A stretch of DNA of 64,000 nt from Mustelus asterias (GCF_964213995.1 NC_135830.1:14074001-14138000); one strand, 5' to 3'. Positions 6,456 through 31,455 are shown, numbered from the stretch's first letter. Program-made: numbers and translations. Notes: generated by a model not told the origin, from the sequence alone.

Positions 6456-7094
6456 AATCACATCAAAACCTGAAAAATGTTCAATCTGAGAGCTGGAGTT
6501 TCTTCATGCTGACGTTAATAATCTCCATAACTTGCTGCTTTTGAATATTCCGATATGTGTCAAATGAACTAATATTGTTTCAGGCACAGAGTCAGTTCCT
6601 TCATTTCTCCAGGATAGGAGCAGATTAATTGCTAACCTGTCACTGGCTGTCACTCAATGCTTCATCTTTATTATTTTCTCCTTTCTAACTGTCTCGATCA
6701 TTTCATTTCTTGGACCTTCAGCTATTCTGTTGAACTCATACCTTCCAAAATGTCTTTCCAAGCCTTGGGAACCAGGGAAGGCATTGATAACACATCCGGG
6801 TCAGTAAACACAAAACACGGCCGTGATGTGCTGGACCCCATCATTGAGAGTGGGGATGTTTGTGGAGCCTCCCCTTCCTGTGGTTCCACTTTGGATGGAA
6901 ATCAGTGAGGTCTGAGAGTGGTTTTCTATTTTTCATATACTCGTAAAACAAATGAACTGATAAACTTGTTGAAATCCTCTTAAAACAGCATTGTAATAAA
7001 AAGACAGAACTTCAAGGAAAACATATTAAATTAAAATATTTTCCCTATTTATACTCTTTATTCCTTGAACTGGGAAATTATCAACGCAGTCAAA

Positions 7095-13093: not shown

Positions 13094-13144
13094 TTCTTAC
13101 AGAAGCGCTGATCGTGGTCTGCACTACATTGAAAAATTGTCACA

Positions 13145-13204
13145 TTTATACGTGGTGTCATGCTCCAGGGAGATAATTAGGTTGCTTGATCTTTCGCATT
13201 AATT
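13145..13204 (-). promoter_or_regulatory. Conserved GPCR core promoter (AATTAA / TAATTA / EBF-like TCCCTGGAG / TATAAA)
   Basis: Same motif order and the same 23-nt TAATTA-to-TATA gap upstream of copies B and C. Confidence 0.6.
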
Positions 13205-13238
13205 AAATTTAAAAGAACAAAGAGATTATTGCAACAAC

Positions 13239-13337
13239 GGCAAGGTGACACAATGGTTAGCACTGTTGCGTCACAGCGCCAGGGACCCGGGTCCAATTCC
13301 GGCCTCCGGTCACTGTCTGTGTGGAGTTTGCACATTG
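13239..13337 (+). mobile_element. HE1-type tRNA-derived SINE, 3'-truncated
   Basis: A/B-box head and ggtcactgtctgtgtggagtttgcacatt, cut off by telomere-like repeats. Confidence 0.85.
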
Positions 13338-13428
13338 TAACCCGAACCCTAACTCTAACCTTGACACTAAAACTAACCCCAACCCGAAATAACTAACTAA
13401 CCCGAACCCTAACATTAACCCTAACCCT
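13338..13428 (+). repeat. Degenerate interstitial telomeric repeat (TAACCC)n
   Basis: taacccgaaccctaactctaacc...taaccctaaccct. Confidence 0.8.
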
Positions 13429-13429
13429 C

Positions 13430-16400
13430 GGTGACATAAAGCCTATAAAAAAAACAAGAATACGGACTTTAAAAAGGGGAAAGGAAAGAATCCAAAATGA
13501 AACAAAGAAAATATTCCACCACTTAAAAAGCAAATAGTCTCGTCGACAGAGAATAATCTCTCCCTAAGCTACAGACAAAAAGATTCATTGCATCCCCCAG
13601 AACACAACACCACCCAGATGATACGAAGCACCCACCCCCACGCCCCCCGCCCCCCGCCCCCCCCCCCCCCACGGCACTACACGTACCCAAAACCATCAAA
13701 AAGACACCCTGCCCCACAAATAAAACCCCACTACCCAAGCCCAACACCATTACAAAAGATGTCCCACCAACCCTCTGCTTGGTTCACCTCGACCCTCCCA
13801 CTTTCCCCCTCACGAATCAATAAGAAAAAACAGGAAGATGCTTCGCTCCCTTACCCTCCAAGCTCCTGACCAGACCATATACAAGGACGAGAGGCAACCA
13901 CACTTGAAGACTTATTGACTGCCAGACACTGCCAAAGCCTCCAAAAAGAGACCAAGAGACCACCACTGGCACAGAATATCACAGAGGGAAAAAGGAATAT
14001 CCCTCCCCCACAAATACCAGGAATGCAACGCAAGGACTGAACCAGGAACCAAAATATTAAAAGAGGTTACCACACAGGGCATAAGGGGACAACAGAGATT
14101 CGAAAGCAGAACCAAAAAAACAAACACCCGCCCATCCAAGCAAAAAACATCCTCAACCCGCCCTAACCACAGAACCATAGATTGAGGGAACACAAAACTG
14201 AGAACACAGCACACCGTTTCCCTGTCAGTCAATGATTGGGAGGGGGTGAATTCAAAAGCTACAGAGAACCAATGCGTTTCAACAGCTTCCTGTCACTCCG
14301 GGACAAGAATTGGCGCTACTTAAGGCCATATGCAGTACAGGTGGAGAGGGGAAACTTCCTTTACCCGCAGAGGTAGCACGGAACACGAGCTGAACACAGA
14401 GCACTCACTCACCCCAAAATTGCTGGACGACACACTATCCGAAAAGGCCACGAAAAGCACACGAAGGACAGGACAGTGAGAACAACTCTCCCTTCCCTTG
14501 ATGAAGCGTAAGGAAGCAGCGAAACCGGTCGGGATGCAAGCTAAATAAGCAAGATTAAACCCCAGTTGGGACTCTACTGGAGAGGAAATGCAAGAATGGC
14601 CTGACACTATCCACCGCCAGCCTTGGAAGTGGGACGAATGGGAGCTAAATGAACCTCAGCTGGATCTGGCCTTGGCACCCTACAGCCCTAGGGTGAGTGA
14701 ATTTTCCACATCCACACATAAATAAAGACTCTCAGACCGTGTGCCCTGGACACGGTCCGCGGATTGACATAGGTTCACCTTAATCAATGGGGCTAATCCA
14801 AAACACATAGGGACCTAAAAGAACGGTAGAAATAATCGACTCGGCGATGTGTGAACCACTAAAACAAAATATAAATCTGTATTTTTTTCATGTAAGATAT
14901 AAAATGGAGGACACAATGGCCACATGGCGACTCTGTACAATCCACGGGCAGGTCTCGGAAAAATATCAATCATTAAGTATTCGATCACCCGAATCAATAG
15001 GACAAACCTGGACACAGGATAGCTTGTCGCAACTAACAAACGGGCTCTCCCTTAAACATGCGAATGTCTATATTCTTTGAATCACCTTGAACAATGGAAC
15101 GAACCCTGGTCACAGAGTAACACACAATAACTGACAGATGAAACTCTCCTAAGAAGGGCAACAACTAACCCACTGGATCACTTTAAAATGATACAATACA
15201 TGTGAAATCATTAATTTATGGGCCGGGACGGTGGCACCGTGGTAAGCAGTGCTGTCTCACGGCGTCAGTGACCCGGCTTGACTTGGACCATTGTGCAGAG
15301 TTTGCACGTTCTCCCCGTGTCTGCGTGAGTTTCCTCCAGGTGCTCCGGTTTCCTCCCACACTCCAAAGATGTGTATGTTATGTGGATTGTCCGTGATAAA
15401 TTCTCCCTCAGTGTACCCTTTCACAGTAACTTAATTGCATCGTTAATGTAAGCCTATTGGGACACTAATTAAGAAATAAATAAATGGTAACAGAAGTCAT
15501 TTTTGTCCTGCCAAAAGTTCTTGCCTCATGACAAACCCATGAACCACCCAAATAAACGAGGATGCCCGTAGACTCCCTCGCTCCGCCAACCAATGCCTCC
15601 ACACCAATCCGACACATACCACCCGAATCCACACAACACCATCCTGCCCACCACAACATTGAACACTCAGAAATAACAGGTCACTCGATCCCAAGTGGTC
15701 CGGGAGCCCCCTCACCCCGTCCACCCTTGGAGACACACACGGGAGGCGAAAGTGTCAAGGCATGGGAAGACAACAAACCACCCTTCAAAACACAACATAA
15801 CCACCAATTTTCTGATCAGGAAAGCCCCAAGAATTCCCCCCACAACCTCCTGAGCTGCCCTCAGTAGCCCACCTGCTACCACCAAACCACACACCCCAAT
15901 CCCCGCACCCCCCGTCCGTCTGCCCAGAAAACAAAAAAAACAGAGTCTCACTCCGCAACAGGCACCAAACCTCCCCATCCAGGAAAGCCACAAAAAACTC
16001 TCCAGCGCACACATTACCTTAAGATTTACGCCAAAGCCACAGAAACACAGAAACCCCAACCTAACCGTCCCCTCCCCCGACACACACGACCTCAACAACT
16101 ACCTCCCCCCAACCACCTACAATACGGCAGAACTCGACCATCACTCTGTCTTCCTCCTCTCCCCCCACAACCCCATCTTAATTCCACTCACACGAGATTT
16201 TAATTGCATTTGACTGCGTTATTTTAAATACTTTGTCGGCGTCGCCATTCACAACTAACAAGAGTAATCATATTCATTTTAAAAAAAGGAAAAGGTCCAG
16301 GAGACAAGAATACAATAAGCCAAAATATAAGGGCAAGGGATCACAAGGGGCATCAAGGATTGGACGTGGGCCGAAAGCAAAATGGCAAAAAACAAAGAAA

Positions 16401-16500
16401 AGGGGACATGTCCTCTTTCTGTCCGACTCCAAAAACCTAACCGATGCGTTCCTTCAATCCACAGGAACCACGACTCTCATCGACCTAATATTTGTTTAAA
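13430..16500 (+). mobile_element. A/C-skewed block, probably a decayed L1/Tx1-clade element
   Basis: Strong strand skew; Cys/His knuckle-like HFCP..GCP (~15500-15570), Pro/Thr-rich linker, endonuclease-like DFNC (~16197) and IDLIFV (~16480). Confidence 0.4.
15222..15482 (+). mobile_element. HE1-related SINE with alternative 3' tail
   Basis: HE1 core plus ttcacagtaacttaattg..gtaagcct tail, also present at 49905-50165. Confidence 0.8.
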
Positions 16501-16559
16501 TTGTGAACGATAACTCAGTGGGTGACATCGGTAGGGAGACTCCCTGCCCTCTGTGTCTT

Positions 16560-16875
16560 TTCTGACACTGTAGCACATTAGGTAGCATTGCTGGCCCACA
16601 GCGTATTGGTGCAGAATTCAATACGGGTCACTGTCTGTGTGGAGTTTGAACATTCCCCCCGTGTCTGCGTGTGTGGAGAGAAACCGAGCACCCAGCGCAC
16701 AATGCAAAGTTGTGCGGGTTAGGTTGATTGACCATGTTGCATTGCCCGCAGTGGCAGGGAGCAAACAGGGCACATATGTGGAGTTACGGGGATAGGGCCT
16801 GTGTGGGATTGTTGTTGGTGCAAACTTGATGGGCCGAATGGCTTCCTTCTGTACTCTAAGGCTATCTATGTTTCT
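16560..16875 (+). mobile_element. HE1-type SINE
   Basis: Core gtcactgtctgtgtggagttt and CR1-derived tail gatgggccgaatggcttccttctg. Confidence 0.8.
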
Positions 16876-17070
16876 GCCACTGAGCTCTTGGTATTCTGAG
16901 CAATCGTCTTCTGGGGCTGATGCAATGACGCCAGGAGAGTCATTCGCTGCAGCGTCTGCAATGTGATTATGGTGGAATTTGGTGAATTTTTCTCAGTGTA
17001 CCACGTTCTGAGGATTTTGATTAAAATGCCCTTGAGTAAAAACAATCAGCGGCTTCAGCAAAGAAAAGCA

Positions 17071-17142
17071 ACGTCCCACCAAGATCTAAACTTGAATCGC
17101 TGGATTCAGAGTCCAGAGTTCTGGCCATTACAACACAGAACC
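17071..17142 (-). pseudogene. tRNA-Gln(CTG) pseudogene
   Basis: Minus strand GGTTCTGTGTTGTAATGG..CTGGACTCTGAATCCAG..; T-loop mutated. Confidence 0.8.
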
Positions 17143-17259
17143 CAGAAGCCAGCTGCAAGTGGTCACTCAAAGCACGTGACCCCTTTCATTCAATGTGGCA
17201 GCAACAGCAGGAAGGTCAAATCCTTTAAGCGGCCATTTGCAGCCGGCTCCAATGTTGGA

Positions 17260-17292
17260 GGTTCTCTGGTCCAATGGTGAGCACTCTGAACC
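17260..17292 (+). pseudogene. tRNA-Gln 5'-half fragment
   Basis: GGTTCTCTGGTCCAATGGTGAGCACTCTGAAC, with an upstream flank homologous to that of the 17071-17142 copy. Confidence 0.55.
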
Positions 17293-17339
17293 AGACTGAT
17301 CCTTGCTTTTCTTTGACGTTGCTGAGGGTTGATTTGAAT

Positions 17340-17665
17340 CTTAGAAACCCTACAAGCACAGAAAGAGGCCACTTGGCCTATCGAGTCTGCACCGACCACA
17401 ATCCCACCCTCATAACCCTACATATTTACCCACTAATCCCTCTAATCTACGCATCGCACGACACTAAGAGCAATTTTAGCATTGCCAATCAACCTAACCC
17501 GCACATCTTTGGAATGTGGGAGGAAACCAGACCACCCGTAGGAAATCCACGCAGGCACGAGGAGAATGTGCAAACTCCACACAGACAGTGACCCAAGCCG
17601 GGAATCGAACCCAGGTCTCTGGAGCTGTGAAGCAGCATTGCTAACCACTGTGATACCGTACCGCC
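17340..17665 (-). mobile_element. HE1-type SINE
   Basis: Full head, core and tail in reverse orientation. Confidence 0.88.
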
Positions 17666-17918
17666 CCATTTGTTGATGGACATTTCGTTTAAATTTCTCA
17701 CAAAGCAGGAATGCCAACGACAATTTTGTCAGCCTGTTCAGCTGCTATTACAATGCACATTGCTGAGCCTCTGGCGACAGATGTCTGCACCATCAGTGTT
17801 TTTTTTCATCTTTTCGCTACCCTTTAATTCCTCTGTTGAAAGAAAGGGGCAGTTGGTGTCACACAACCACAACCATTGGGCTGGAGTCCGGCAATTATTG
17901 ATCAAGTTTGTGAGTTTC

Positions 17919-17942
17919 TGTGTGTGTGTGTGTGTGTGTGTG
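17919..17942. repeat. (GT)n microsatellite
   Basis: Seen directly. Confidence 0.9.
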
Positions 17943-17996
17943 CCTGTGCATAGGTGCGTTTTGGGAGATCAGAGTGTCTTATATCAGAGTGCTATC

Positions 17997-18029
17997 GGTT
18001 CTATGGTGTAACGGTTCACACTCTGGACA
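17997..18029 (+). pseudogene. tRNA-Gln 5'-half fragment
   Basis: GGTTCTATGGTGTAACGGTTCACACTCTGGAC. Confidence 0.55.
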
Positions 18030-18318
18030 TTCGGCGTCCGAACAATTGTTTAAATTGGGACAGGTGGGTGACTGAATGGCACCCGTAGGTGGACCCCTGT
18101 CCGCTGTGGCTTCTCTGCCTCTCAGCGCTTTTTCTTCTCGAGCAAACGTCCTCTGGGCCTGATGCAATGACGACAGGGGCGTCATTCGTTGCATCATCTG
18201 CAAAGTGATTGCGGTGGAATATGCCGAAATTACCTCAGTGTTTAGATTTCGACTTTCTGAGAATTTTAAAAAAAAGTCCCTTCAGCAAAATCATTATCGG
18301 CTTTGGGAAAGGAAGGCA

Positions 18319-18390
18319 AGGTTCCATCGAGATTTGAGCTCGGATCACTGGATTCAGAGTCCAGAGTGCTCACCATTACAACATAGACCC
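18319..18390 (-). tRNA. tRNA-Gln(CTG)-like gene, probably a pseudogene
   Basis: 72-nt close match to vertebrate tRNA-Gln; B box GCTCAA instead of GTTCAA, acceptor-stem mismatches. Confidence 0.75.
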
Positions 18391-18454
18391 AGGAACATGG
18401 CCACCAGCTCCAAATGAGGACACACAAATAGTTTGACCTCTTTCATTCAATTAC

Positions 18455-19760
18455 CCGTTTTATCCACCTGTCGTGCGACATTCAGGGACCGCTATACATG
18501 CTCACTAATGTCCCTCTGAGATTCCCAGGGTCCTGCGTTTATCATGTATTCCCTTGCCTTGTTTGTCCTGCCCGAGCACATCGCCTCACATTGAGCCGGA
18601 TCGAATTCCATTTGCAATAGCCCAGCTTATCTGACCAGGTCATCTATATCCTTCTGTGAACCAGGATTACCTCCGCCTTATCTACCACCTCGCAAATGTT
18701 TGTATCAAATGCCAATTTATTGCTCAAGCCTCGAACATTCAAATCGAAATCACTCATGCAAACCGCAGATGCAAAAACACTGATCCCTTGGGGCCCTCAG
18801 GAGACATACTCTTCCACTCCGAAAGTCTGTCACAACCATCACCGTCTGCTCCCTGCCATAAGAGGTCACAAGATATCGGAGCAGAATTAGGTCATTCGGC
18901 CCGTCGAATCCGCTCCGCCATTCAATCATGGAGGATATGGTCCTCATCCCAGAACCCTTCAACCAATTAAAAATCTGTCTCATTCCTCCTTAAATTTACT
19001 CACTGTCCCAGCATCCACTGCACTTTGGGTTAGCGAATTCGACAGATTCAAAACCCTTTGGGAGAAGTAGTTCCTCCTCAACTCAGTTTAAATTTGCTAC
19101 CCCTCATCCTAAGTCCATGACATCCCATCTTAGAATGCCCCAACAGCTGAAGCATTCGTTCCACGTCTACCTTATCCATGCCTTTTATCATCTTGTACAC
19201 CTCAATTTGATCTCCCCTCATTCTTCTCAATTCCAGAGAGTACAGGCCTAAACTGTTCAATCTCTCTGCATGCGACAAACACTTCATCTCTGGAATCAAT
19301 CTGGTGAACCTCCTCTGGACTGCCTCCAATGCCACAACATCTTTCCTCAAATAAGCGGAACAAAACTGCGTACAATACTTCAGGTGCGGCCTCACCAATA
19401 CCTTGTATAGTTGCAGCAATACTTCCTTGTCTTAATATTCTATGCCTTTAGCTATAACTGCCAACATTCCTTTCGCTTTATTTGTCTGCTGTCTGCATGG
19501 CAGATTCCTGTGACTCATGAACGAAGACACCCAGATCCCTCTGCACCGGAGTATCCCAAAGTCTCTCCCCATTTAGATAGTAAGTCGTCTTCCCATTTTT
19601 CTGACCAAAATGCATGATTTCACACTTATTCACCTTAAACTCCATCTGCCACATTTTCGCCCACTCTCCTAACCTACTTTTTTCATTATTAAGTTTTTTT
19701 ATTTCCTCCTTGCAACTTACTGTCCCGCCTATTTTTGAGTCATCTGCAAATTTGGCGATG
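18455..19760 (-). mobile_element. Two CR1-type LINE fragments (RT region; 3' end with tail near 18860)
   Basis: ORF 19078-19419 LYKVLVRPHL..QRRFTRLIP; KFADD-type motifs. Confidence 0.85.
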
Positions 19761-21693
19761 TTGCCTTAATTTCGAGTTTATTCAGGAGGAACTTCTCTTT
19801 CAGAATGTCAATGTTCCGACGAGAGAGCGGGAGAAACTTGATCTCCTCTTGGGAAATAAGGAAGAGCAGGTGACACAAGGAGAGTGAGGGATCACTTTGG
19901 GACGAGTGACCATAATTCCATTAGTTTTAAGATAGCTATGGAGAACAATAGGTCTGGCCCAAAAGTTAAAATTCTAAATTGGGGCAAGGCCAATATTAAT
20001 GTTATCAGACAGGAACTTTCAAAAGTTAATTGGGGAATTTGCTGGCAGGCAAAGGCGTCTGGTAAGTGGGAGGCTTTCAACAGTCTGTTAACCAGGTATC
20101 AGGACAAGCACATTCCTCTTACCGTGAAGGGCAAGGCTGGTAGAACGAGGGAACGCTGGATAACTGGGGATATTGAGGCCCTGGTCAAGAAGAAGAATGA
20201 GATAAATGTCATACACCGGCAGCTGGGATCAAATGCATCCTTGAAGAATATAGAGGGTGTAGAAGCAGAGATAAGAGGATTCAGGAGAGCAAAAAGAGGA
20301 CACGAGAATGTTTTGGCAGATAAGGCAAAGCAGAATCAAAAGAGTTTCTACAAATGTATGAAGGGTAAAAGAGTAACTAGGGGAGAGAGTAGGACCTATT
20401 AAGAATCAACAAGGCAATTTATGTGCGGATCCACAAGAGAAGGGTGAAATGATAAATGAATATTTCTTATCGGTATTTAGTTTTGTAAAAGGCAAAAAAT
20501 GTTCGGGAACTTAGGGAAATAAATAGTGATGTCTTGAGGCGTGTAACAGAGACGGAGGTGCTGGATGTCTTAAAGTGCATCAAGCTAGATACATCCCAGG
20601 GACCTGATGAAGTGTATAACAGGACGTTGTGGGAGGCGGGGGGGGGGGGGGGGGGAGAGGCGAAAGAGGAAATTGACTTTCCCCTGGCAGAGATATTTGA
20701 ATCATGGCCAGCCACAGTGAGGTGCCTGAAGACTGGAGGGTGGCAAATGTTGTGTATTTGATTAAAATGGGCTGCACGGAAAAGCCTGGAAACTACAGGG
20801 AGATGAGCCTCATATCTGTAGTGGGTAAGTTTTTAGAAGGCATTCTGAGAGACAGGATCGATAGGCATTTAGAGAGGCAAGGACTGATTAGGGAGAGTCA
20901 GCATGGCATTGTGAGTGGAACATCATTTCTCACAAATTAAATGCAGTTTTTTGAAGGGGTAACCAAGAAGGTACATGAGCAATGCAGTTGATATTGACTA
21001 CATGGGCTTTTGCAAGGGCTTCGACAAGGTATCACATGATAGGTTGTTGCATAAGGTTCATTCTCACGGAATCCAGGGTGAGATGACAAATAGGTACAAA
21101 ATTGGCTTGATGACAGAACACAAAGGGTGGTGCCAAAAGTTGTTTTTCAAACCCGGAGGCCTGTGACCAGCGGTTTGTCTCAGGGATCGGTGTTGGGTCC
21201 ACCGTTTTTGTCATTTATGTTCGTGATTTGGTATTTNNNNNNNNNNNNNNNNNNNNNNNNNNNNNNNNNNNNNNNNNNNNNNNNNNNNNNNNNNNNNNNN
21301 NNNNNNNNNNNNNNNNNNNNNNNNNNNNNNNNNNNNNNNNNNNNNNNNNNNNNNNNNNNNNNNNNNNNNNNNNNNNNNNNNNNNNNNNNNNNNNNNNNNN
21401 NNNNNNNNNNNNNNNNNNNNNNNNNNNNNNNNNNNNNNNNNNNNNNNNNNNNNNNNNNNNNNAATGAGTGCCATGTTCGAGTCTTTACGTCGCTCGTCGA
21501 CGTGTTTGTCTACCTCTAGCGAATCCACAGTCAAGGGACTACTAATCTAAACTGAGGCCAGATTATAAGGTCAAATCAGGGGTACTACCCTCCCAAGATC
21601 TAATTGGGGCTACCGAGCCAAGTTGTTGGTACCCAGTGCACGAAACTCCACCACCTCAGGACTGATAGAATAGGCCGAATCAAGACTGAAAAA

Positions 21694-22194
21694 TTAAAAA
21701 CTATTAACTATACTACCCTTAGTTCGGTCCTGAGTTGGCTCTATGCTAACAGTCTCGATGAAGGTACCAGAAGTACCAACATCGCTTACGGTATTTTTGC
21801 TTATTTCTAAGCTTCCCAAACCCATATTCTGGGCTTTATAGGCCTTATTATAGAAGGTAACTGTAGTTAACTCAACTACGTCATCCGTTGGATGGGCCGT
21901 CCGAACGGGCTCCTCTACAATAGGTTCAATGTCCTCAACTACTGGGGTAGCTACCTTACCTGGACTGGGACCAGAATATACCACCCAATAGTGCCGATAG
22001 TTTAACTCGGGTCTCAAGACCGTCTCTTCTGTTTGAGTGGAGACGGAACTTGTCTCTAGCTTCTTAGGGCTAGTTCTAGTATAGCCTAACTTTTTGAATT
22101 TTTCCCAGAGAGCGGCTACAGACTCATCTGGGGGGCTGTTATTTAACCGGGACCCAACCCATCCGGATTCCCCCTTTTTGGGAGTATTATTCAT
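21694..22194 (-). CDS. 166-aa ORF of unknown function in the R2-like element
   Basis: ATG ~80 nt after the ribozyme; S/T/P/V/E-rich; SVSTQTE motif; no zinc-finger, Myb or RT motifs. Confidence 0.45.
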   Translation of the reverse strand: MNNTPKKGESGWVGSRLNNSPPDESVAALWEKFKKLGYTRTSPKKLETSSVSTQTEETVLRPELNYRHYWVVYSGPSPGKVATPVVEDIEPIVEEPVRTAHPTDDVVELTTVTFYNKAYKAQNMGLGSLEISKNTVSDVGTSGTFIETVSIEPTQDRTKGSIVNSF

Positions 22195-22271
22195 TTCGCT
22201 AACCGCCTATATCAAATCGCACAAATCTCTCTGTGGACTATCTATCTACGGTCTCTGCGTTGTTTTTAACA

Positions 22272-22437
22272 AAGTTGTTTAGCCCTTGGTGGCAAGCCAC
22301 CAAGGTTACCGACGGGGCCGCGAGGAGGCACAACTTCACTGTGAATGCCAAAACACGCCAATAACATTCACAGAGGTAACTACCCAGAGATGACTCTCTA
22401 GTGAGACCCTTCTAAGAGAGTCATAGTTACTCCCGCC
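22272..22437 (-). ncRNA. HDV-like self-cleaving ribozyme (R2 type)
   Basis: P1 GGCGGG/CCCGTC; P2 AAGTTGT/ACAACTT; P3 GCC/GGC with L3 TCCTCGC; GG for P1.1; P4 CCTTGGTGGC/GCCACCAAGG; J4/2 GCTAA; two hairpins in J1/2. Confidence 0.88.
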
Positions 22438-22670
22438 AATTTAGGAGGTACAGTTTGTAAGTTTGCAGATGACATCTAGATAGGTGGCATAGTGGACTGT
22501 AAAGAACGGTTTCAAGGACTGCAAAGGGATTTTGATCAATTGGGCCAGTGGCCTGACGACTGGCAGATGGAATTTACTTCAGATAAATGTGAGGTGATGC
22601 ATTTTGGTAGATCGAACCACGGCAGGATTTACTCAGTTCATGGTGGGGCGTTGGGGAGAGTTATAGAACA

Positions 22671-25600
22671 TAGAACATAGAACAGTACAGCACAGAATAG
22701 GCCCTTCGGCCCACGATGTTGTGCCGAGCTTTATCAGAAACCAAGATCAAGCTATCCCACTCCCTATCATCCTTGTGTGCTCCATGTGCCTATCCAATAA
22801 CCGCGTAAATGTTCCTAAAGTGTCTGACTCCACTATCACTGCAGGCAGTCCATTCCACACCCCAACCACTCTCTGCGTAAAGAACCTACCTCTGATATCC
22901 TTCCTATTTCCCACCACGAACCCTATAGTTATGCCCCCTTGTAATAGTTCCATCCAATCGAGGAAATTGTCTTTGAACATTCACTCTATCTATCCCCTTC
23001 ATCATTTTATAAACCTCTATTAAGTCTCCCCTCAGCCTCCTCCGCTCCAGAGAGAACAGCCCTAGCTCCCGCAACCTTTCCTCATAACACCTACCCTCCA
23101 AACCAGGCCGCATCCTGGTAAAACTCCTCTGCACTCTTTCCAGCGCTTCCACATCCTTCTTATAGTGAGGTGACCAGAACTGCACACAATATTCCAAATG
23201 TGGTCTCACCAAGGTCCTGTACATTTGCAGCATAGCCCCATGGCTCTTAAACTCCAACCCCCTGTTAATAAAAGCTAACACACTATAGGCCTTCTTCACA
23301 GCTCTATCCGCTTGAGTGGCAACCTTTAGAGATCTGTGGATATGGACACCAAGATCTCTCTGTTCCTCCACAGTCTTCAGAACCCTACCTTTGACCCTGC
23401 AAGCCACATTTAAATTAGTCCTACCAAAATGAATCACCTCACATTTATCATGGTTGAACTCCATTTGCCATTTTTCAGCCCAGCTTTGCATCCTATCTAT
23501 GTCTCTTTGCCGCCGACAACAGCCCTCTACCTCATCCACTACTCCCCCTATCTTGGTGTCATCAGCAAATTTACTGATCCACCCTTCAGCCCCCTCCTCT
23601 AAGTCATTAATAAAAATCACAAAGAGCAGAGGACCAAGCACTGATCCCTGTGGCACTCCACTAGCAACCTGCCTCCAGTCCGAAAATTTTCCATCCACCA
23701 CCACCCTCTGTCTTCGATCAGGTAGCCAGTTACCTATCCAATCGGCCAACTTTCCCTCTATCCCACACCTCCTCACTTTCATCATAAGCCGACCATGGGG
23801 GACCTTATCAAACGCCTTACTAAAATCCATGTATATGACATGAACCGCCCTACCTTCATCAACACACTTAGTTACCTCCTCAAAGAATTCAATCAAATTT
23901 GTGAGGCACGACTTGCCCTTCACGAATTCGTGCTGACTATCCCGGATTAATCCGCATCTTTCTAAATGGTCGTAATCTCATCCCTAAGGACCTTTTCCAT
24001 CAATTTACCAACCACCGAAGTAAGACTAAACGGTCTATAATTACCAGGGTCATTTCTATTCCCTTTCTTAAACAGAGGAACGACATTCGCCACTCTCCAG
24101 TCCTCGGGCGCTATCCCCGTGGACAGCGAGGACCCAAAGATCAAAGCCAAAGGCTCTGCAATCTCATCACTTGCCTCCCAACGAATCCTAGGATATATTT
24201 CATCAGGCCCAGGGGCTTATCGACCTTCAGTTTATTCAGAACTGCCAGGACATCCTCCCTCCGAACATCTATTTCCTCCAGCCTATTAGCCTGTAACACC
24301 TTCTCTTCCTCAAAAACATGGCCCCTGTCCTTGGTGAACACTGAAGAAAAGTATTCATTCATCACCTCGCCTATCTCTACTGACTCCATACACAAGTTCC
24401 CACTACTGTCCTTGACCGGCCCTAACCTCACCCTGGTCATTCTTTTATTCCTCACATAAGAGTAAAAAGCCTTGGGGTTTTCCTTGATCCGACCCGCCAA
24501 GGACTTCTCATGTCCACTCCTAGCTCTCCTATGCCCCTTTTTCAGCTCATTCCTTGCTAACTTGTAAGCCTCAATCGAGCCATCTGAACCTTGTTTCCTC
24601 ATCCCTACATAAGCTTCCCTCTTCCTTTTCACAAGATATTCCACCTCTTTCGTGAACCATGGTTCCCTCACACAGCCATTTCCTCCCTGCCTGACAGGGA
24701 CATACATCAAGGACACCCAGTATTTGTTCCTTGAAAAAGTTCCACTTTTCATTAGTGCCTTTCCCTGACAGTTTCTGTTCCCATCTTATGCCCCCTAATT
24801 CTTGCCTCATCGCATCATAATTACCTCTCCCCCAATTGTAAACCTTGCCCTGCCGTGCGGCCCTATCCCTCTCCATTGCAATAACAAAAGACACCGAATT
24901 GTGGTCACTATCTCCAAAGTGTTCTCCCACAACCAAATCTAACACTTGGCCCGGTTCAGTTCCCAGTACCAAATCCAATGTGGCCTCACCTCTTGTCGGC
25001 CTATCCACATATTGTGTCAGGAAACCCTCCTGCACACACTGCACAAAAACTGCCCCATCCGAACTATTTGACCTACAAAGGTTCCAATCAATATTTGAAA
25101 AGTTAAAGTCCCCCATGACAACTACCCTGTGACCCCCACACATATCCATAATCTGCTTAGCAATTTCTTCCTCCACATCTCTATTACTATTTGGTGACCT
25201 ATAGTAAACTCCTAACAACGTGACCCCTCCTTTCCTATTTCTAAGCTCAGCCCATATTACCTCAGTGTGCAGATCCCCCTCGAAGTGCCTTTCCGCAGCC
25301 GTTAAACTATCCTTGATTAACAATGCTACTCCTCCACCTCTTTTGCCAGCTTCCCTACACTTACTGAAACATATATACCCCAGAACATTCAACAACCATT
25401 CCTGTCCTTGTGCTACCCACGTCTCCGCAATGGCCACAACATCGTAGTCCCAAGTACCAATCCACGCCGCAAGTTCATCTACCTTGTTCCGGATGCTCCT
25501 TGCATTGAAGTAGACACACTTCAACCCACCTTCCTGCTACCGGTACCCACCCTTGACCTTGATACCTTCCCCAATACCTCGCCACCCTCAACACTGACTT

Positions 25601-25867
25601 CTGGATTACAACTCCTTTTCCCACTACCCTGACAAATTAGTTTAAACCCCCCTGAAGAGCCTTATCAAATTTCCCTCCGAGGATATTGGTGCCCCTCTCG
25701 TTCAGGTGCACCCCGTCCTGTTTGTACAGGTCCCACCTTCCCCAGAATGTGTTCCAATTATCCACGTATCTGAAACCTTCCCTCCTACACCATCCCTGCA
25801 ACCACATGTTTAACTGCACTCGCTCCCTGTTCCTCAACTCGCTATCACTACAGCGAGTTAAATATAT
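22671..25867 (-). mobile_element. Younger CR1 LINE: ORF1 esterase C-terminus + near-complete frameshifted ORF2 + (TGTTCTA)n tail
   Basis: DGVHLN..G (SGNH esterase); APE YFNARS..GDFN..SDHN; RT QGSVLGP..FADD; TSD AGTTATAGAACA at 22659-22670 and 25868-25879. Confidence 0.95.
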
Positions 25868-26829
25868 AGTTATAGAACAAAGAGATCCAGGGGTACATCT
25901 CATTGAAAGTGGAGTCACAGGCGGACAGATTGGTGAAGTGGGTATTCGGTATGCTTGGTTTCATTGGTCGAAACATTGAATTCAGGAGTTGGGACGTCTG
26001 CTTGAAGTTGTACAAGACAAGTGAGGCCACACTTGGAATATTGAGTACAGTCCCGGTCACCCTATCATAGAAACGATATTATTGAACTGGAAACAGTGCA
26101 GAAAGGATTTACGAGGATCCTACCGGGACTTGATGGTTTGAGTTCCAAAGACGGGCTGGATCGACTGGGACTTTTTTCTCTCGAGCGGAGGATGCTTCGG
26201 GGTGATCTTCGAGAGGTCTATAAAATATTGAAGGGCAGAGATCAGCTACATAGTCAATATATATTTCCAAAGGTGGCGGAGTCTAAAACTAGAGAGCAGA
26301 GTTTTAAGGTGAGAGGGGAGAGATACAAAGGAGTGCAGATGGGCATTTTGTCACACAGAGGATGGTGAGTGTCTGGAACAAGCTGCCGGAGGTAGCAGTA
26401 GAGAAAGGTACAATTTTGCCTTTTAAAAAGGGTTTAGGCGGTTACATGGATATTATGGCTGTTGAGGGATATGTCCCAAGCGCGGGCAATTGGGACTAGC
26501 TTAATCATTAAAAAAGGGTGACATGGGCATGCTAGGCCGAAGGGCCTGTTTCCACATTTTAAACCTGTATGATTCTATGAATCTATGACTGTTAAATATG
26601 CTATGAAATGGCCCAGCAAAATATTCAGTTGAAGGGGAAAGAGGGATGGCCAACAAATACTGGCCTTGGCAATGAAATATATTTTGCATCAGCAAAATTT
26701 TATGAAATGATTTACTCTCATTTTGTTTCATTTCATATCAAACAGGGTGACGTATCCTGGTGTCTTATTATTTAAAACTTCAGCACTTTAACTACTTAAA
26801 CAGGTAAGGTTCAGTCAGAGAAAACTCTG

Positions 26830-27105
26830 CTATTTGTGATGTATATAAATGATTTGGAAGAAGGGGTAACTGGTGTTATCAGCAAGTTTGCGGATGACAC
26901 GAAGTTGGCTGGACTTGCGGATAGCGATGAACATTGTCGGACAATACAGCAGGATACAGATAGGCTGGAAAATTGGGCGGAGAAATGGCAGATGGAATTT
27001 AATCCAGGTAAATGCGAAGTGGTGCATTTTGGAAGAACTAATGAAGGGGGGAGCCATCAAGAGTATAGAAACACAGAGGGACCTAGGTGTGGAAGTCCAC
27101 AAATC
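26830..27105 (+). mobile_element. CR1 RT fragment
   Basis: YINDLEEGVTGVISKFADDTK; nearly identical to the 51929-52888 element. Confidence 0.9.
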
Positions 27106-27296
27106 GTGTAAATCACATTAAATGATCACTGCCTGCCATGTGTCTGTTGTGTGATTCTTCTTCAGAGCTTTTTGTTCATGTTACATCTCTGATTTTCCAG
27201 CTCTGATACACGTTTCCCCAGTTCGAAGATTAATTTGTTACTCCGTTCGCAGAGGCGTGTTTCCACTTAATGAAGAACTAAATAAAAAGTTATTAA

Positions 27297-27359
27297 TTCC
27301 ATGACTGGAAATTAAGCCCGGGTCACAGTGCCGAATCCTGACCACGAGACTCAGAGGGA
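27297..27359 (-). pseudogene. tRNA-Glu pseudogene with anticodon arm deleted
   Basis: Minus strand TCCCTCTGAGTCTCGTGGTCAGGATTCGGC...CCCGGGCTTAATTTCCAGTCATGGAA. Confidence 0.6.
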
Positions 27360-28757
27360 AGCACATGCAAGAGATTTGCAATTAGTTGAACATCTTTCTA
27401 CTCGTTGCATCAGTTCAAGCCTCTTGAGCTGTAGACATTGTAAGACATTCATTTGTTGCCGAGTGATTCCTGAGTTCACAATTAGAAAATGCAACAAGTG
27501 CTCTGCAGCTCAGTAAAGTTGGTAACCATTAATGAAATCCGAATGGCATTGACATTAAAAATGTATGGAAATGCTTCTGATCAGTTTCGAAGTGGGGATT
27601 CTTCCGCGTGTAAGTCAAACGTGACAACCATTACACTACAGAAGCACTGCAATATTGTTACCTGAAGCAAGTGCTGTTTTCTGGAGGGGAAAGTAAACTG
27701 GTTCCACAAGCCCGTCTCTTGTCCACATGAAGTTATATTTACAATGGTCCTCCCGTTTCCTCCTATCAAAATGAATAATGATACACCCTGTGGCGTTATT
27801 TTCTGCTGACTTGATCAACGAATTGTATTCCATGACTTTTAAAGTAAATTAACATTTGAAAGTGATATGATTAGATTCCAATATTTCCCCGCTATTATTA
27901 CGCTGGATTCAGTGCCTTAGACGACCCAGCAACGCTACCACAGGAAGCAAATGGTGTCATATCTGGGCTGCCAGGAAACAGAATTAATGGAGTAAGACAA
28001 AGTCATGTATCCCATTGAGCCTCCTCCACCATTTAATGAGGTCATGGCAAATAAAGTCACCATAGTCCCAGATCAACATCGGCTGTTATTTATTCATCTG
28101 ATAAAAAACAAAAATACTGCATACGCTGGAAATCCGAAATAAAAACAGAAAATGCTGGATCAACTCAACAAGTCGAGACAGAAACAGAGTTAACGTTTCA
28201 GAACTTAATTATCATCCTTCAGGGATATTCACCTTAGTTGTGTAGCTTCAGATTAATATGCTATACAAAGGTAAACAGAACAGTGCAAAAGTTCAGGACA
28301 TTTCTTATTAAGTAGCTGAGAATGCCCGAGGGGCCAAATGACCCACCTCTGTCCATGTTAACCATACGCTAATCAGTGCAGTCAAAACAATGGTTAAGGT
28401 GATGTCATGGTGGCAGTGTGGCTGGACGAGCTAAGGTATTTTTTCAATTTCTAGTGTCTGTGGTGATTCGGCCTCAGTTCCCGCCTCTGCCAATCTTCCT
28501 GCTGGTTTACCCTTCATGTCAGCAGGTCATGTGTCTGACAAAATGTTTCTGACAAAAATAATGAAGATGAACTATGCAAGAGGAGTTTGTAAACTTTGGA
28601 GGGAGGTGCAGCATAGAAGAGTAAGATGTGAATAATGTTAATGATAATTGAGAAGAATGCATTGTAACCTACGTGGAACATATTCCCCACTTTGAAATTT
28701 GAACAATCTGAGATGCCAGATGGAAAAGCACATTTTGAAATGCCGCTGACGCAATGT

Positions 28758-28829
28758 GCTTAGCGAGCTCAGTCGGTAAAGCAGAAACTCTTAATGTTAA
28801 GGTCGTGGGTTTGAGGCCCACTTTGGGCG
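28758..28829 (+). pseudogene. tRNA-Lys(CTT) pseudogene
   Basis: AGCTCAGTCGGTAAAGC..ACTCTTAAT..GGTCGTGGGTTTGAGGCCCACTTTGGGCG, followed by a T5 Pol III terminator. Confidence 0.8.
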
Positions 28830-29282
28830 TCAGTGTTTTTAAACTTTTCTGCTTTCCTGTGTGAATTCCAGCTCTCCATTCCTCCGGCAATGTCACCACT
28901 CAAACTGGGTATTTCCCCGTGCTGCTTTGTGAAACCCTCAGTTACTGGTTTCTGAATGAAAACTGCCTGTCCTCCATTGGAAGCCGAAAAGTTTGGTGCT
29001 TAATTCAGCTAGAGGTTTGTTTTTAAATCATTTAGCATCATATTTGGACCGGGATCTGTGATATACTTCTGTCAGTGGAAAAAATAAAATCTACGCATTA
29101 TTGGCCAGATTTTACCTTGTATTGCCATCTCTATCGTCAGCGCTTTGCAGCCGATCACTGTCCTTTTCCTGTTCTTGATCTTCTGAACGTGACATTTCCA
29201 ACTCAAGCACAAAGTCGTGCATCTCCCTTACTGGTACTGACCACAAAATCAATAATGGTTGATGCACAATAATAAAATTGCT

Positions 29283-29354
29283 TGCCCTGACAAGAAATCG
29301 AACCCAAGCAGTAACGGTGCAAGCGCTGCATCCTAACCACGAGACCACTAGGTA
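29283..29354 (-). pseudogene. tRNA-Glu-derived gene with TGC anticodon (probable pseudogene)
   Basis: Glu-type body GGTCTCGTGGTTAGGAT..GCGCTTGCACCG..GGTTCGATT; stem mismatches. Confidence 0.75.
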
Positions 29355-29984
29355 AAATACGAGGTGCTGATTTTTTCGAATATCTAATTGACAATTGAAA
29401 CCTTTGACTTTCATTTTCTTTTCAGACTTTTTTTCCCCAGAAACAAGTTTCTCCTTGAAATTGTCAAGTTTAAGCTGAGCAAAATTGACTTCTTAGCCAG
29501 TGGAAACACGAATGCTGTTAACTGGAACATGAAATTAGCAGTGCGATGAAATAGTCCCATAAGCTGCTGATATGTAACTTTCAATTTCTAAGTCTCACCA
29601 ACCTCATCATTGCAGCTCATGTGATACGTATGAGGCAACACAAGGCAGACATCGGTCACTGAAAGCAATTGACGCAGATCATATGTTAAACATTTTAATG
29701 TCGCATCTCTTTACGTTTCTGTTGCTGCCTCTCCTTCTGCTCCCTCTGACCGTCCAGCTCCTCGGATCAATTAGCTTCTTGTGGCAGACCCAGATAGTTG
29801 GAGGGAGGATCGGGGATTATAGGACACAACGTTGTGTGAAGAGAGGGAGTTCACAGATGACAGGGGATAGAGACACCAGGATCTTATCTTCCTAATTCTC
29901 CAAGATGCAGATTACAGGAAGTTGCACAGTGCCAATTATTCGCAGTCACGCTCTCCTTTCAGTCTTTTGTACGGAGTCAAGTTT

Positions 29985-30860
29985 CGTAACCTTTGAAGCC
30001 TTGCTGCATTTGCTCCGGGTATTGCCAATCCCTCATTTGGAATATTGTGTGCATTTTTGGTGTTTCACATTTAAGACAGGATGTGCATCTAATGGAGACA
30101 GTACAACAAAACTTCACTGGGCTATTCTCTGAGATGAAGGGGTTGTCCTATCATGCGAGATCGGGTAAATTGGGCTCAATTTCTCTGGAGTTCAGCAAAA
30201 TGATATACTATCTCATTGAAACATACACAAGAATGAATGGAATAAATCGGATGCATTCTGAGATGTCATTCGCATTCTCAAATGATTTAAAATATGGGAC
30301 ACAGTCTCAGGATAAGGGACAAAGACTTTAGGACATTTAGGACTGAGATGAGGAGAATAGTTTTGTTGGTTATATATCCAATTCAATCCAATCAAAGTCC
30401 AATTCAGTGTCGCAGCAAGTGATACATACCCGGTCCAAGCTGACAAGACAGGGATCTCACCTCCTATCTTGGACTTGATCTATAGGATCCAAGCTGATTG
30501 GAGTAGGCATTGCACCTGCTCCAAGGCTTGATCTCATTTGCATCTCAGCCAAAAGGCCGAGATGCTGCTTTTAAAAAATGCTTCAAATGAAGCTACAATG
30601 TAACCTTGTGGCTTCAACCAAGTACAGCATGTCGATGCTGCACTTGATCTTAGCCAAAAGGCTGAGAAGCGATGACGAGAAATTACTCCACTCAAAATGT
30701 TGGGAATCGTTGGCATTTTCTCTTCCAGAAGGTTCTGGATGCTCCATCATTGAACACATTTCATTGTGCGATAGACAGATTTCTTCTGTCCAGCAACGAA
30801 GGGAAGCAGGCGGGAATATCGAACTTAAACAAATGCTCAGCCACGAATTAATGTTTCAAC
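29985..30860 (+). mobile_element. Degenerate CR1 3' fragment interrupted by a U2-headed element
   Basis: IPHLEYCVHFW; the LINE sequence resumes after 30674. Confidence 0.7.
30358..30673 (-). mobile_element. U2-snRNA-headed short retroposon
   Basis: ATCGCTTCTCAGCCTTTTGGCTAAGATCAAGTG (U2 nt 1-33), a second U2 piece at 30542-30562, ATTGG-repeat/A-rich tail, TSD-like GATGAGGAGAA / GATGACGAGAA. Confidence 0.75.
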
Positions 30861-30885
30861 ACTGAATCTTACGTTTAATAGCATA

Positions 30886-30889
<4 letters not shown>

Positions 30890-30944
<55 letters not shown>
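30890..30944. repeat. (AT)n microsatellite
   Basis: Seen directly. Confidence 0.95.
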
Positions 30945-30945
<1 letters not shown>

Positions 30946-31455
30946 TTCATTTAACATGTATACAATGAACATTTATGAATTAAATAACGTTGGTAACGCT
31001 GGGAGACATTTTTAAGGGCGGCCACGGACCCATTACCAACCCGCAAATGTTTGCGTATGAATGCTGCTGGGGAGTAAACAGTAGAATTTCCGTCCCTGGA
31101 TTATTTCGAACTACCAATCGTTCTTTCAATAGCCGAGCTGCAACAGGTATCTTAAATTAGGGCGTTAATCATTTCTCTACAGATTCGAGCAAATTCTATT
31201 GCTGCAAAAGCTGATCCAGAACGACAGCATGACCACATCGTTTACAATTCCATACAAGTGCCTTCCGTTATTTTGTTTCCACATGGTTGCTGTGTGTGGG
31301 GGGTATTCCCTTTCTCCTACGAAAAAGTAAAATGAATCCATGCCTCTTACGGCAGGGAGAAATTAAACGGTAGAGAATAGAATTGACCACCAGAAGCCCA
31401 AGGCTACAGGACCTTCAAGTCATGATGTGGAGTTGCCAGCGTTGGACTGGGGTAG

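Follow-up and report, generated by a model that had tools for sequence, protein, structure and literature searches.

An internally deleted R2 copy in a CR1-type relic

The window, the whole 64-kb stretch of Mustelus asterias DNA that was analysed, carries on its minus strand a 1,206-nt insertion made of 25 nt of 28S rRNA, 700 nt from the 5' end of an R2 element, 264 nt of R2 3' UTR and 217 nt of downstream 28S, all inside a relic of a CR1-type reverse transcriptase (RT; Table 1). The original prediction had placed an R2-related element of about 1.2 kb outside rDNA and within a CR1 relic; the CR1-type flanks and the mapping of the insertion as two arms on a full-length R2 (L031 2064-2788 and 6893-7375, 99% identity) bear this out. 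A run of 226 N had been taken for an assembly gap that might hide a normal 3-4 kb ORF. Instead, the genome assembly (G000) fills this run with the final 14 nt of R2 followed by downstream 28S. Thus rDNA-derived sequence is present at the 3' end of the element too, and the remark that no other rDNA was visible holds for the rest of the 64 kb, where we found no other 28S or R2 except for host-repeat pieces also found in the R2 3' UTR. The last 3 nt of the 28S tail are common to the host repeat, so that the insertion reaches 21232 (21229 counting the shared bases) and not 21237 as first proposed. Compared with a public contig and paralogous repeats, the insertion replaced about 5 nt of the host relic, with no target-site duplication.

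Table 1. Features of the insertion and its host relic. Positions are counted from the first letter of the window.
Feature	Position	Strand	Remarks
28S rRNA head, -28 to -4 from the R2 nick	22413..22437	minus	compared with uninserted 28S unit L103
First 6 nt of 28S head, 5' strand of P1	22432..22437	minus	
HDV-like ribozyme fold (predicted)	22272..22437	minus	P1, long J1/2 with three stems, P2, P3/L3, P1.1, P4, J4/2 with conserved C
P1	22437-22432 with 22316-22311	minus	
P2	22336-22330 with 22278-22272	minus	
P3	22329-22327 with 22319-22317	minus	
P1.1	22325-22324 with 22310-22309	minus	
P4	22305-22296 with 22293-22284	minus	
First 700 nt of lineage-A R2	21713..22412	minus	L031 2089-2788, 99% identical
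166-codon ORF	21694..22194	minus	R2 ORF codons 1-161 and 5 codons of 3' UTR; no Pfam match
Joint of 4,104-nt internal deletion	21712..21713	minus	L031 2788/6893; one shared T, not GT-AG
Two arms predicted to pair (5' ORF piece and 3' UTR piece)	21650..21775	minus	z -3.12, prediction
Last 264 nt of R2 3' UTR	21449..21712	minus	L031 6893-7155
28S rRNA read-through tail, +1 to +220	21229..21448	minus	one mismatch; read from genome assembly G000
Host CR1-type RT relic, right-hand part	22438..22674	plus	tblastn with CR1-type ORF2 of L097 (RVT_1, Exo_endo_phos)
Host CR1-type RT relic, left-hand part	21094..21231	plus	joint 21231-22438, 5 letters between

The surroundings are rich in repeats. A younger CR1-type RT stretch (22677-23974 minus and neighbouring pieces; 71% aa identity to L097 ORF2) lies head to head with the host relic, and more CR1-type pieces occur at 19087-20722 and 24189-25000. 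The 3' UTR of the parent R2 (L031 6630-6820) contains a piece of a common host repeat, presumably SINE-like, which is also seen at window positions 15298, 17463, 49931 and 62250.

Where does the element come from? We searched the genome with its readable 975 nt and found, among 40 scored of 104 candidates, that its two halves lie on rDNA contigs with 4.1 kb between them, as parts of a 5,067-nt R2 between 28S positions -4 and +1. A stop-free frame of 1,297 aa is present in 6 of the 9 loci scanned; by motifs from an alignment to R2Tg it encodes three zinc fingers (CCHH, CCHC, CCHH), Myb, RT, a zinc knuckle and RLE, with RVT_1 at E 7e-36. The closest solved relatives are vertebrate R2 proteins (735, 734 and 728 bits, against 281 bits for insect R2). 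Alignment scores assign this parent to R2 lineage A, and L031 has both the canonical 28S site and the full domain set of that lineage. Full-length and 5'-truncated R2 copies lie at the 28S site, so the element is not of the R2NS type, which has no 28S-site copies.

The window copy has neither the intact ORF nor the 28S target site. Because 4,104 nt are deleted and the flanks are of CR1 type, it is a derivative and not an autonomous R2 member; nor is it a new lineage as first proposed, being 99% identical to a full-length rDNA R2 of the same genome. The small ORF believed to be the element's own is the beginning of the R2 ORF (Table 1), ends just before zinc finger 3 and encodes no functional domain. 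Away from rDNA, the copy would also have no rRNA co-transcript.

At least three R2 lineages use the 28S site in this genome: A, which is young; B, whose full-length element (L101, the second found) measures 4,731 nt and has an intact ORF with 67% aa identity; and an older set near 70% identity, mostly strays (loci noted for the three lineages together are L101, L056, L095, L042-L057 and L071). L071 joins an A-type 5' part to a B-type 3' end. Several loci are composite: an R2 that has an in-frame deletion and 630 nt of 28S as a tail is fused to a full R2 at L036 (2518-10000), an inverted truncated R2 to a deleted R2 at L070 (3284-9901), and the 3' end of one lineage to the 5' end of another at L049 and L050. 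Such head-to-tail and inverted arrangements fit template jumping.

The deletion joint occurs three times in the assembly, in the window and on contigs C90 and C108, each time within the same non-rDNA flanks. All 18 kb fetched from C90 and C108 (window 13121-31151) match the window at 98.9-99.8%, and the flanks of the three copies, each of which holds all junctions, differ by 0.2-1.1%. Since the joint is confined to the window and two segmental duplicates, it marks one event and not a replicating family; judged from the assembled sequence, this is one insertion that was duplicated later. The assembled rDNA contains 150 exact 28S heads and 122 empty sites, none with the window joint, and is incomplete, so that a unit with this joint may be missing from it. 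The 5' junction is spanned by one public contig (sample S2), which extends 118 letters beyond it in one direction and 306 in the other, and one contig of sample S4, from the same study, covers the deletion joint with a short side of 29 letters, below our threshold of 31; run X4 had no coverage over the R2 part.

The predicted ribozyme and the ends of stray copies

The 28S head and the adjoining R2 sequence are predicted to fold into an HDV-like ribozyme. All HDV helices named in the original prediction lie where it put them on the minus strand, with P1.1 in addition, and both back-pairings of element sequence onto the 28S-derived bases are present. The 168-nt strand folds with a z of -4.53, and none of 200 shuffles was equally stable. 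The five helices form a nested double pseudoknot, and the L3 U and G and the J4/2 C and A of HDV-like ribozymes are in place. We aligned 19 related heads from the same genome, some partly decayed. Pairing of the pseudoknotted structure is retained in 91.8% of cells and two-sided changes affect 11 of 54 pairs (P2, 3; P4, 2; P1, 1; one J1/2 stem, 5), against at most 48.9% of cells paired and at most 6 two-sided pairs in slid-partner controls; because the heads are related and partly decayed, this covariation counts as support rather than as a probability. All 19 heads keep the J4/2 C and 18/19 the L3 G, and the first P1 pair, G-C in the window copy, is G-U in 13/19. A covariance-model check proposed earlier gave a weak match: the Rfam HDV model RF00094, which does not include the 95-nt J1/2, scored 16.4 bits (E 2.7) with the window ribozyme, short of the curated cut-off of 50, and nothing relevant was found among the Rfam-type matches. 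The ribozyme call thus rests on the helices and the covariation, which hold, and not on Rfam.

In the young lineage, the 3' strand of P1 (window 22316-22311) is altered, which makes the first pair G-C and the second one G-U. Of the three headed strays of this lineage, two begin at -27 (L063 and L070 are the loci noted), and 4/4 copies of the 90% stratum begin at -28; on these small numbers, the cleavage position may be moving by one base in the young lineage. A 156-nt fragment running from 28S -21 to inside the last P2 strand is 100% identical at L059-L062, which are four duplicated regions (G000 C71, C107, C170 and C132).

A search with the element without its 28S head gave 40 matches (40 of 46 candidates scored): 10 rDNA-type loci, the window and its 2 duplicates, the 4 duplicates of the 156-nt ribozyme fragment, and a remainder of 23 whose identity ranges from about 70 to 100%. 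We counted 19 heads, that of the window and 18 of the 23, excluding two that are fused to the rear of another R2, two in which 28S continues upstream and one that is 5'-truncated. In these copies outside 28S, identity to 28S steps from 1/19 heads at -29 to 13/19 at -28, which confirms that the element begins at the first G of P1. Four heads found later (L097, L106, L107 and L108) also start at -28, L106 being preceded by a C that matches -29, and T precedes 11/11 clean -28 heads. In the accessible text of PMC3774820, -28 is the commonest R2 cleavage site, shown in vitro for several arthropods. With its 5' end at -28, the window copy still looks like a reverse transcript of a ribozyme-cut RNA, as had been suggested.

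At the 3' side, 20 of 22 loci tried could be parsed. The next bases of the 16 copies without a long tail match 28S +1 in 12, +2 in 10 and +3 in 8; the other 4 have 28S tails of 14 to 550 nt. Paralogues were found for 7 of 14 copies compared, and 5 copies have both flanks in one repeat: these resolved sites lost 0 to about 8 nt and show no duplication and no poly(A). At L047, the same comparison found unrelated flanks. By analogy, the stray sites match the off-target pattern of engineered avian R2, whose off-target insertions are described as having little target likeness beyond primer-complementary bases (PMC11371274). An RNA route for the strays is well supported.

The flank upstream of the window copy is no more 28S-like than chance (9 matches, p ~0.34). 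Over the upstream flanks of 24 copies, 28S likeness for -25 to -7, an interval picked post hoc from four tried, was 9.46 versus 8.01 +/- 0.24, a value reached in 0/300 random sets. Three held-out heads were not above chance, the likeness was absent in 5 truncated copies and in the window copy, and head duplications could mimic such a signal.

Alternatively, a piece of rDNA with a deleted R2 might have moved as DNA, by repair capture or as a circle, or the locus might be misassembled. Long 28S on both sides of some strays (L069, L093, L096) indicates that DNA-level or long-RNA transfer happens, and the 3' end of the window copy lies at an arbitrary 28S position. However, its 5' end falls on the exact -28 base common to 12 other strays, and the -28 step argues against random DNA capture. 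Misassembly would have to account for three assembled copies with diverged flanks and for the contig that bridges the 5' junction. We therefore regard both as highly improbable.

As for the enzyme behind the insertion, the same RNA could have been copied into a break by the RT of another LINE (CR1, L2 or L1 type) or by a repair polymerase. CR1-type elements are abundant, and priming 220 nt into 28S would be far from the R2 3' end bound by the R2 protein. The T found before clean -28 heads points in the same direction, and three sites read TT/A, which recalls an L1-type cut. However, the 5 resolved sites lack the target-site duplication and the poly(A), and most strays run to the R2 3' end and continue into TAG-like bases, as expected from R2 priming. 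Untemplated G and T are, moreover, known at R2 5' junctions (PMC13000458, accessible text). A foreign enzyme is therefore distinctly unlikely.

Recurrent loss of the R2 coding body

Five independent lineage-A copies, including that of the window, lack nearly the same 4.1 kb. Their 5' breaks lie at 2788, 2871, 2796, ~2826 and ~2731 and their 3' breaks at 6893, 6893, 6886, ~6905 and ~6950 (range about 6884-6950). Three other deleted copies (L036, L047, L053) break at different places, and under a crude uniform model, 5 of 8 copies clustered like this in 0/200,000 simulated sets. Each of the five deletions has its own joint. L063 and the window differ at 5 sites at which L063 retains the older state, so their deletions are separate events and descent of the window copy from the L063 deletion is ruled out. 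Splicing is ruled out as well because the joint is not GT-AG.

The 3' breaks fall in a tract of 82% A+T. When 223 windows of the parent RNA were compared as partners for the UTR immediately beyond the break, 2721-2780 came first; this pairing is also the top of 3,648 window pairs, by a small margin, and ranks 2/137 and 1/88 in two older copies. A fold of the whole RNA, which is unreliable at 5 kb, contains the helices 2747-2778:6914-6944 and 2865-2885:6870-6889 among 10 long-range helices. As modelled, these two bracket 4/5 joints, and the inner one was equalled by 4/100 shuffles. The arms predicted to pair within 21650..21775 would thus form a long-range helix in the full-length RNA and a local hairpin in the window copy. 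No comparable helix was found at the lineage-B joint or at the joint of the older copy L047, which speaks against long-range pairing as a general cause of deletion. In these models, pairing may sharpen the deletion site in lineage A; alternatively, the geometry of the RNA-protein complex, or selection acting on precursors that resided in rDNA, may be what the deletions have in common. About 12% of R2 products made in vitro are reported to carry internal deletions, and the in-vitro jumps described had microhomology (PMC13000458, accessible text), unlike the window joint with its single shared base.

We consider it probable that the window copy is a single internally deleted lineage-A R2 copy in a CR1 relic, likely made by the R2 RT from an rRNA co-transcript predicted to be cut at -28, and likely a dead end. 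It is a young, SIDE-shaped, one-off stray of a known element kind and not a new lineage. In the proposed course of events, an R2-bearing rDNA unit would be transcribed and the predicted ribozyme cleavage would free the 5' end, the RNA 3' end lying 220 nt or more downstream within 28S. A host strand with a nick or break would then pair with 3 bases of the 28S tail and prime cDNA synthesis. Having copied some 480 nt, the RT would skip the coding body from within a U-rich stretch of the 3' UTR and resume 725 nt from the 5' end, a step that we find somewhat more probable than its absence; otherwise, the template would already have been deleted in an rDNA unit. That predicted long-range pairing sets the place of the skip is a rather doubtful addition. 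The cDNA end would be joined bluntly to the host, and the region would later have been duplicated twice.

Miniature R2 forms and known systems

Deleted R2 forms also occur elsewhere in the genome. A 966-nt deleted lineage-B form lies at the 28S site, identical in 4 rDNA units (40 of 97 candidates scored): three neighbours on C347 (L098 822-1787, L099, L100) and L102 on C1591. Its 5' junction repeats part of the head, and its 5' break and that of the window copy fall at one and the same ORF position. As the copies are identical and adjacent, amplification by rDNA recombination fits as well as retrotransposition.

A family of about 1.35 kb gave at least 47 matches (40 of 67 candidates scored; L106 1477-2840 minus, on C5 at 87.8 Mb, L107-L125, L097, L096 and L093). 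It has a 28S head at -28, an HDV-like fold that includes the J4/2 C, two more ribozyme-like relic repeats that lack this C, and an R2-type 3' end. Full-length alignments at 69-90% identity were obtained for at least 8 near-complete copies from unrelated sites, and relatives occur at 28S-site fragments (L093, L096, L111). Of 10 family loci screened with the 19-head model, 8 have a first ribozyme unit that scores between 15 and 60 bits, and two (L113 and L116) are missed; L096 is also unmatched. No R2 ORF remnant was found in the family by tblastn with two R2 ORFs (one 23-aa match, E 0.03) or by a 6-sequence N-terminal HMM. Replication of the family as a unit is well supported, we infer that R2 mobilised it, and it is the best candidate for a true vertebrate R2 SIDE family. 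The kind of short R2 parasite that the original prediction suspected in the window thus seems to exist in this genome at other places; the window form itself is known from three joints within the same flanks.

Could the window copy nevertheless have escaped from a non-autonomous R2 family (SIDE) that replicates? The deletion would then be older and located in an rDNA unit, the RNA would be mobilised in trans, and the clustered breakpoints would reflect the least sequence needed. The window copy has the make-up of a SIDE, a 5' R2 ribozyme and the R2 3' UTR end joined by an internal deletion, with no functional ORF. Deleted forms do reside in rDNA here, the 966-nt form in four units with the same ORF break position and lineage-A deletions on rDNA contigs (L070, L036), and the older non-coding 1.35-kb family has spread. 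However, several independent insertions are not seen for the window form, nor is the 28S-site position, since all 3 joint matches, with their constant flanks, are non-rDNA in an assembly whose rDNA is incomplete. Each of the five clustered deletions has a separate joint, and only 2 changes are common to the three duplicates and absent from every rDNA copy compared. Such an escape is therefore unlikely, and a one-off deletion product of R2 remains our preferred explanation.

A broader proposal, possible although we lean slightly against it, is that all stages in the life of vertebrate R2 parasites can be seen in this genome: the RNA ends are held together, the RT repeatedly skips the coding body and the products are SIDEs. 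If this were true, the first 650-800 nt of the R2 RNA would be held beside the last 200-300 nt, and the kept ends would mark the minimal cis-acting RNA of vertebrate R2. The window copy and the four others would be newborn SIDEs, the 966-nt lineage-B form a rDNA-amplified one, and the 1.35-kb family, with one intact and two relic ribozymes at dozens of non-rDNA sites, an established one.

Lineage-A vertebrate R2 proteins are under development for writing genes into rDNA. What is known so far of their off-target behaviour and deletion products comes mostly from short experiments in cells. This genome is a long natural record, in which stray 5' ends map the predicted ribozyme cut in vivo, a few bases at stray 3' ends pair with the rRNA tail, and deletions have arisen repeatedly at one position. 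The window copy and about twenty other strays likely record target misses of R2 and the origin of miniature forms. By itself, the window copy is probably a dead-end by-product, and its value is as a marker of the series elsewhere in the genome. Descriptions of R2 SIDEs so far concern Drosophila and present them as rare; with a vertebrate series, the questions of the least template and of trans-mobilisation would become directly testable.

R2, SIDEs and off-target R2 copies are already-known kinds. In the literature searched, which included few subscription papers and had Repbase, Dfam and supplements outside its scope, we came across neither a described vertebrate R2 SIDE nor a naturally occurring collection of strays headed at -28, and the accessible part of a 2026 review (PMC13580325) has nothing on these points. 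R2 itself is known from cartilaginous fish (PMC5035012, PMC13188248, accessible parts). The parent resembles the lineage-A vertebrate R2 of known structure (R2Tg of zebra finch, PDB 9DOU and 9NL3, and the protein of 9NL2; PMC12180492, accessible text) in its 28S site, its ZnF3-ZnF2-ZnF1-Myb-RT-RLE ORF and a ribozyme that uses upstream 28S. In contrast, the window copy lacks 4.1 kb and every domain, lies outside rDNA and has a 28S tail.

The available text on Drosophila R2 SIDEs (PMC3414825) describes elements that likewise join a ribozyme to a 3' UTR by internal deletion, with a template jump or recombination as proposed origin. Those SIDEs are at the 28S site, old and multi-copy, with ~25% ribozyme divergence from R2, whereas the window copy is one young event at 99% identity, outside rDNA, that keeps 161 codons; the Drosophila model better fits the 966-nt lineage-B form and the 1.35-kb family. 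Extra-rDNA R2 and R1 copies of Drosophila, as far as the consulted portion of PMC2718515 goes, are strays outside 28S and often incomplete, as here, and the R1 strays carry upstream and downstream 28S bases. Many strays of the present genome, in contrast, are 5'-complete, mark -28 and range from ~70% to 100% identity to the current element. Off-targets of engineered avian R2 (PRINT; PMC11371274, accessible text) likewise use few primer-complementary bases, and gapped copies were seen among them; the events described here are natural, in the germline and from native co-transcripts. Finally, R2NS-1_SMed and R2NS-1_CSi (PMC5035012, accessible part) also have R2 copies at unrelated sites, whereas the lineage studied here still inserts at the canonical 28S site, its strays being a by-product and not a loss of specificity.
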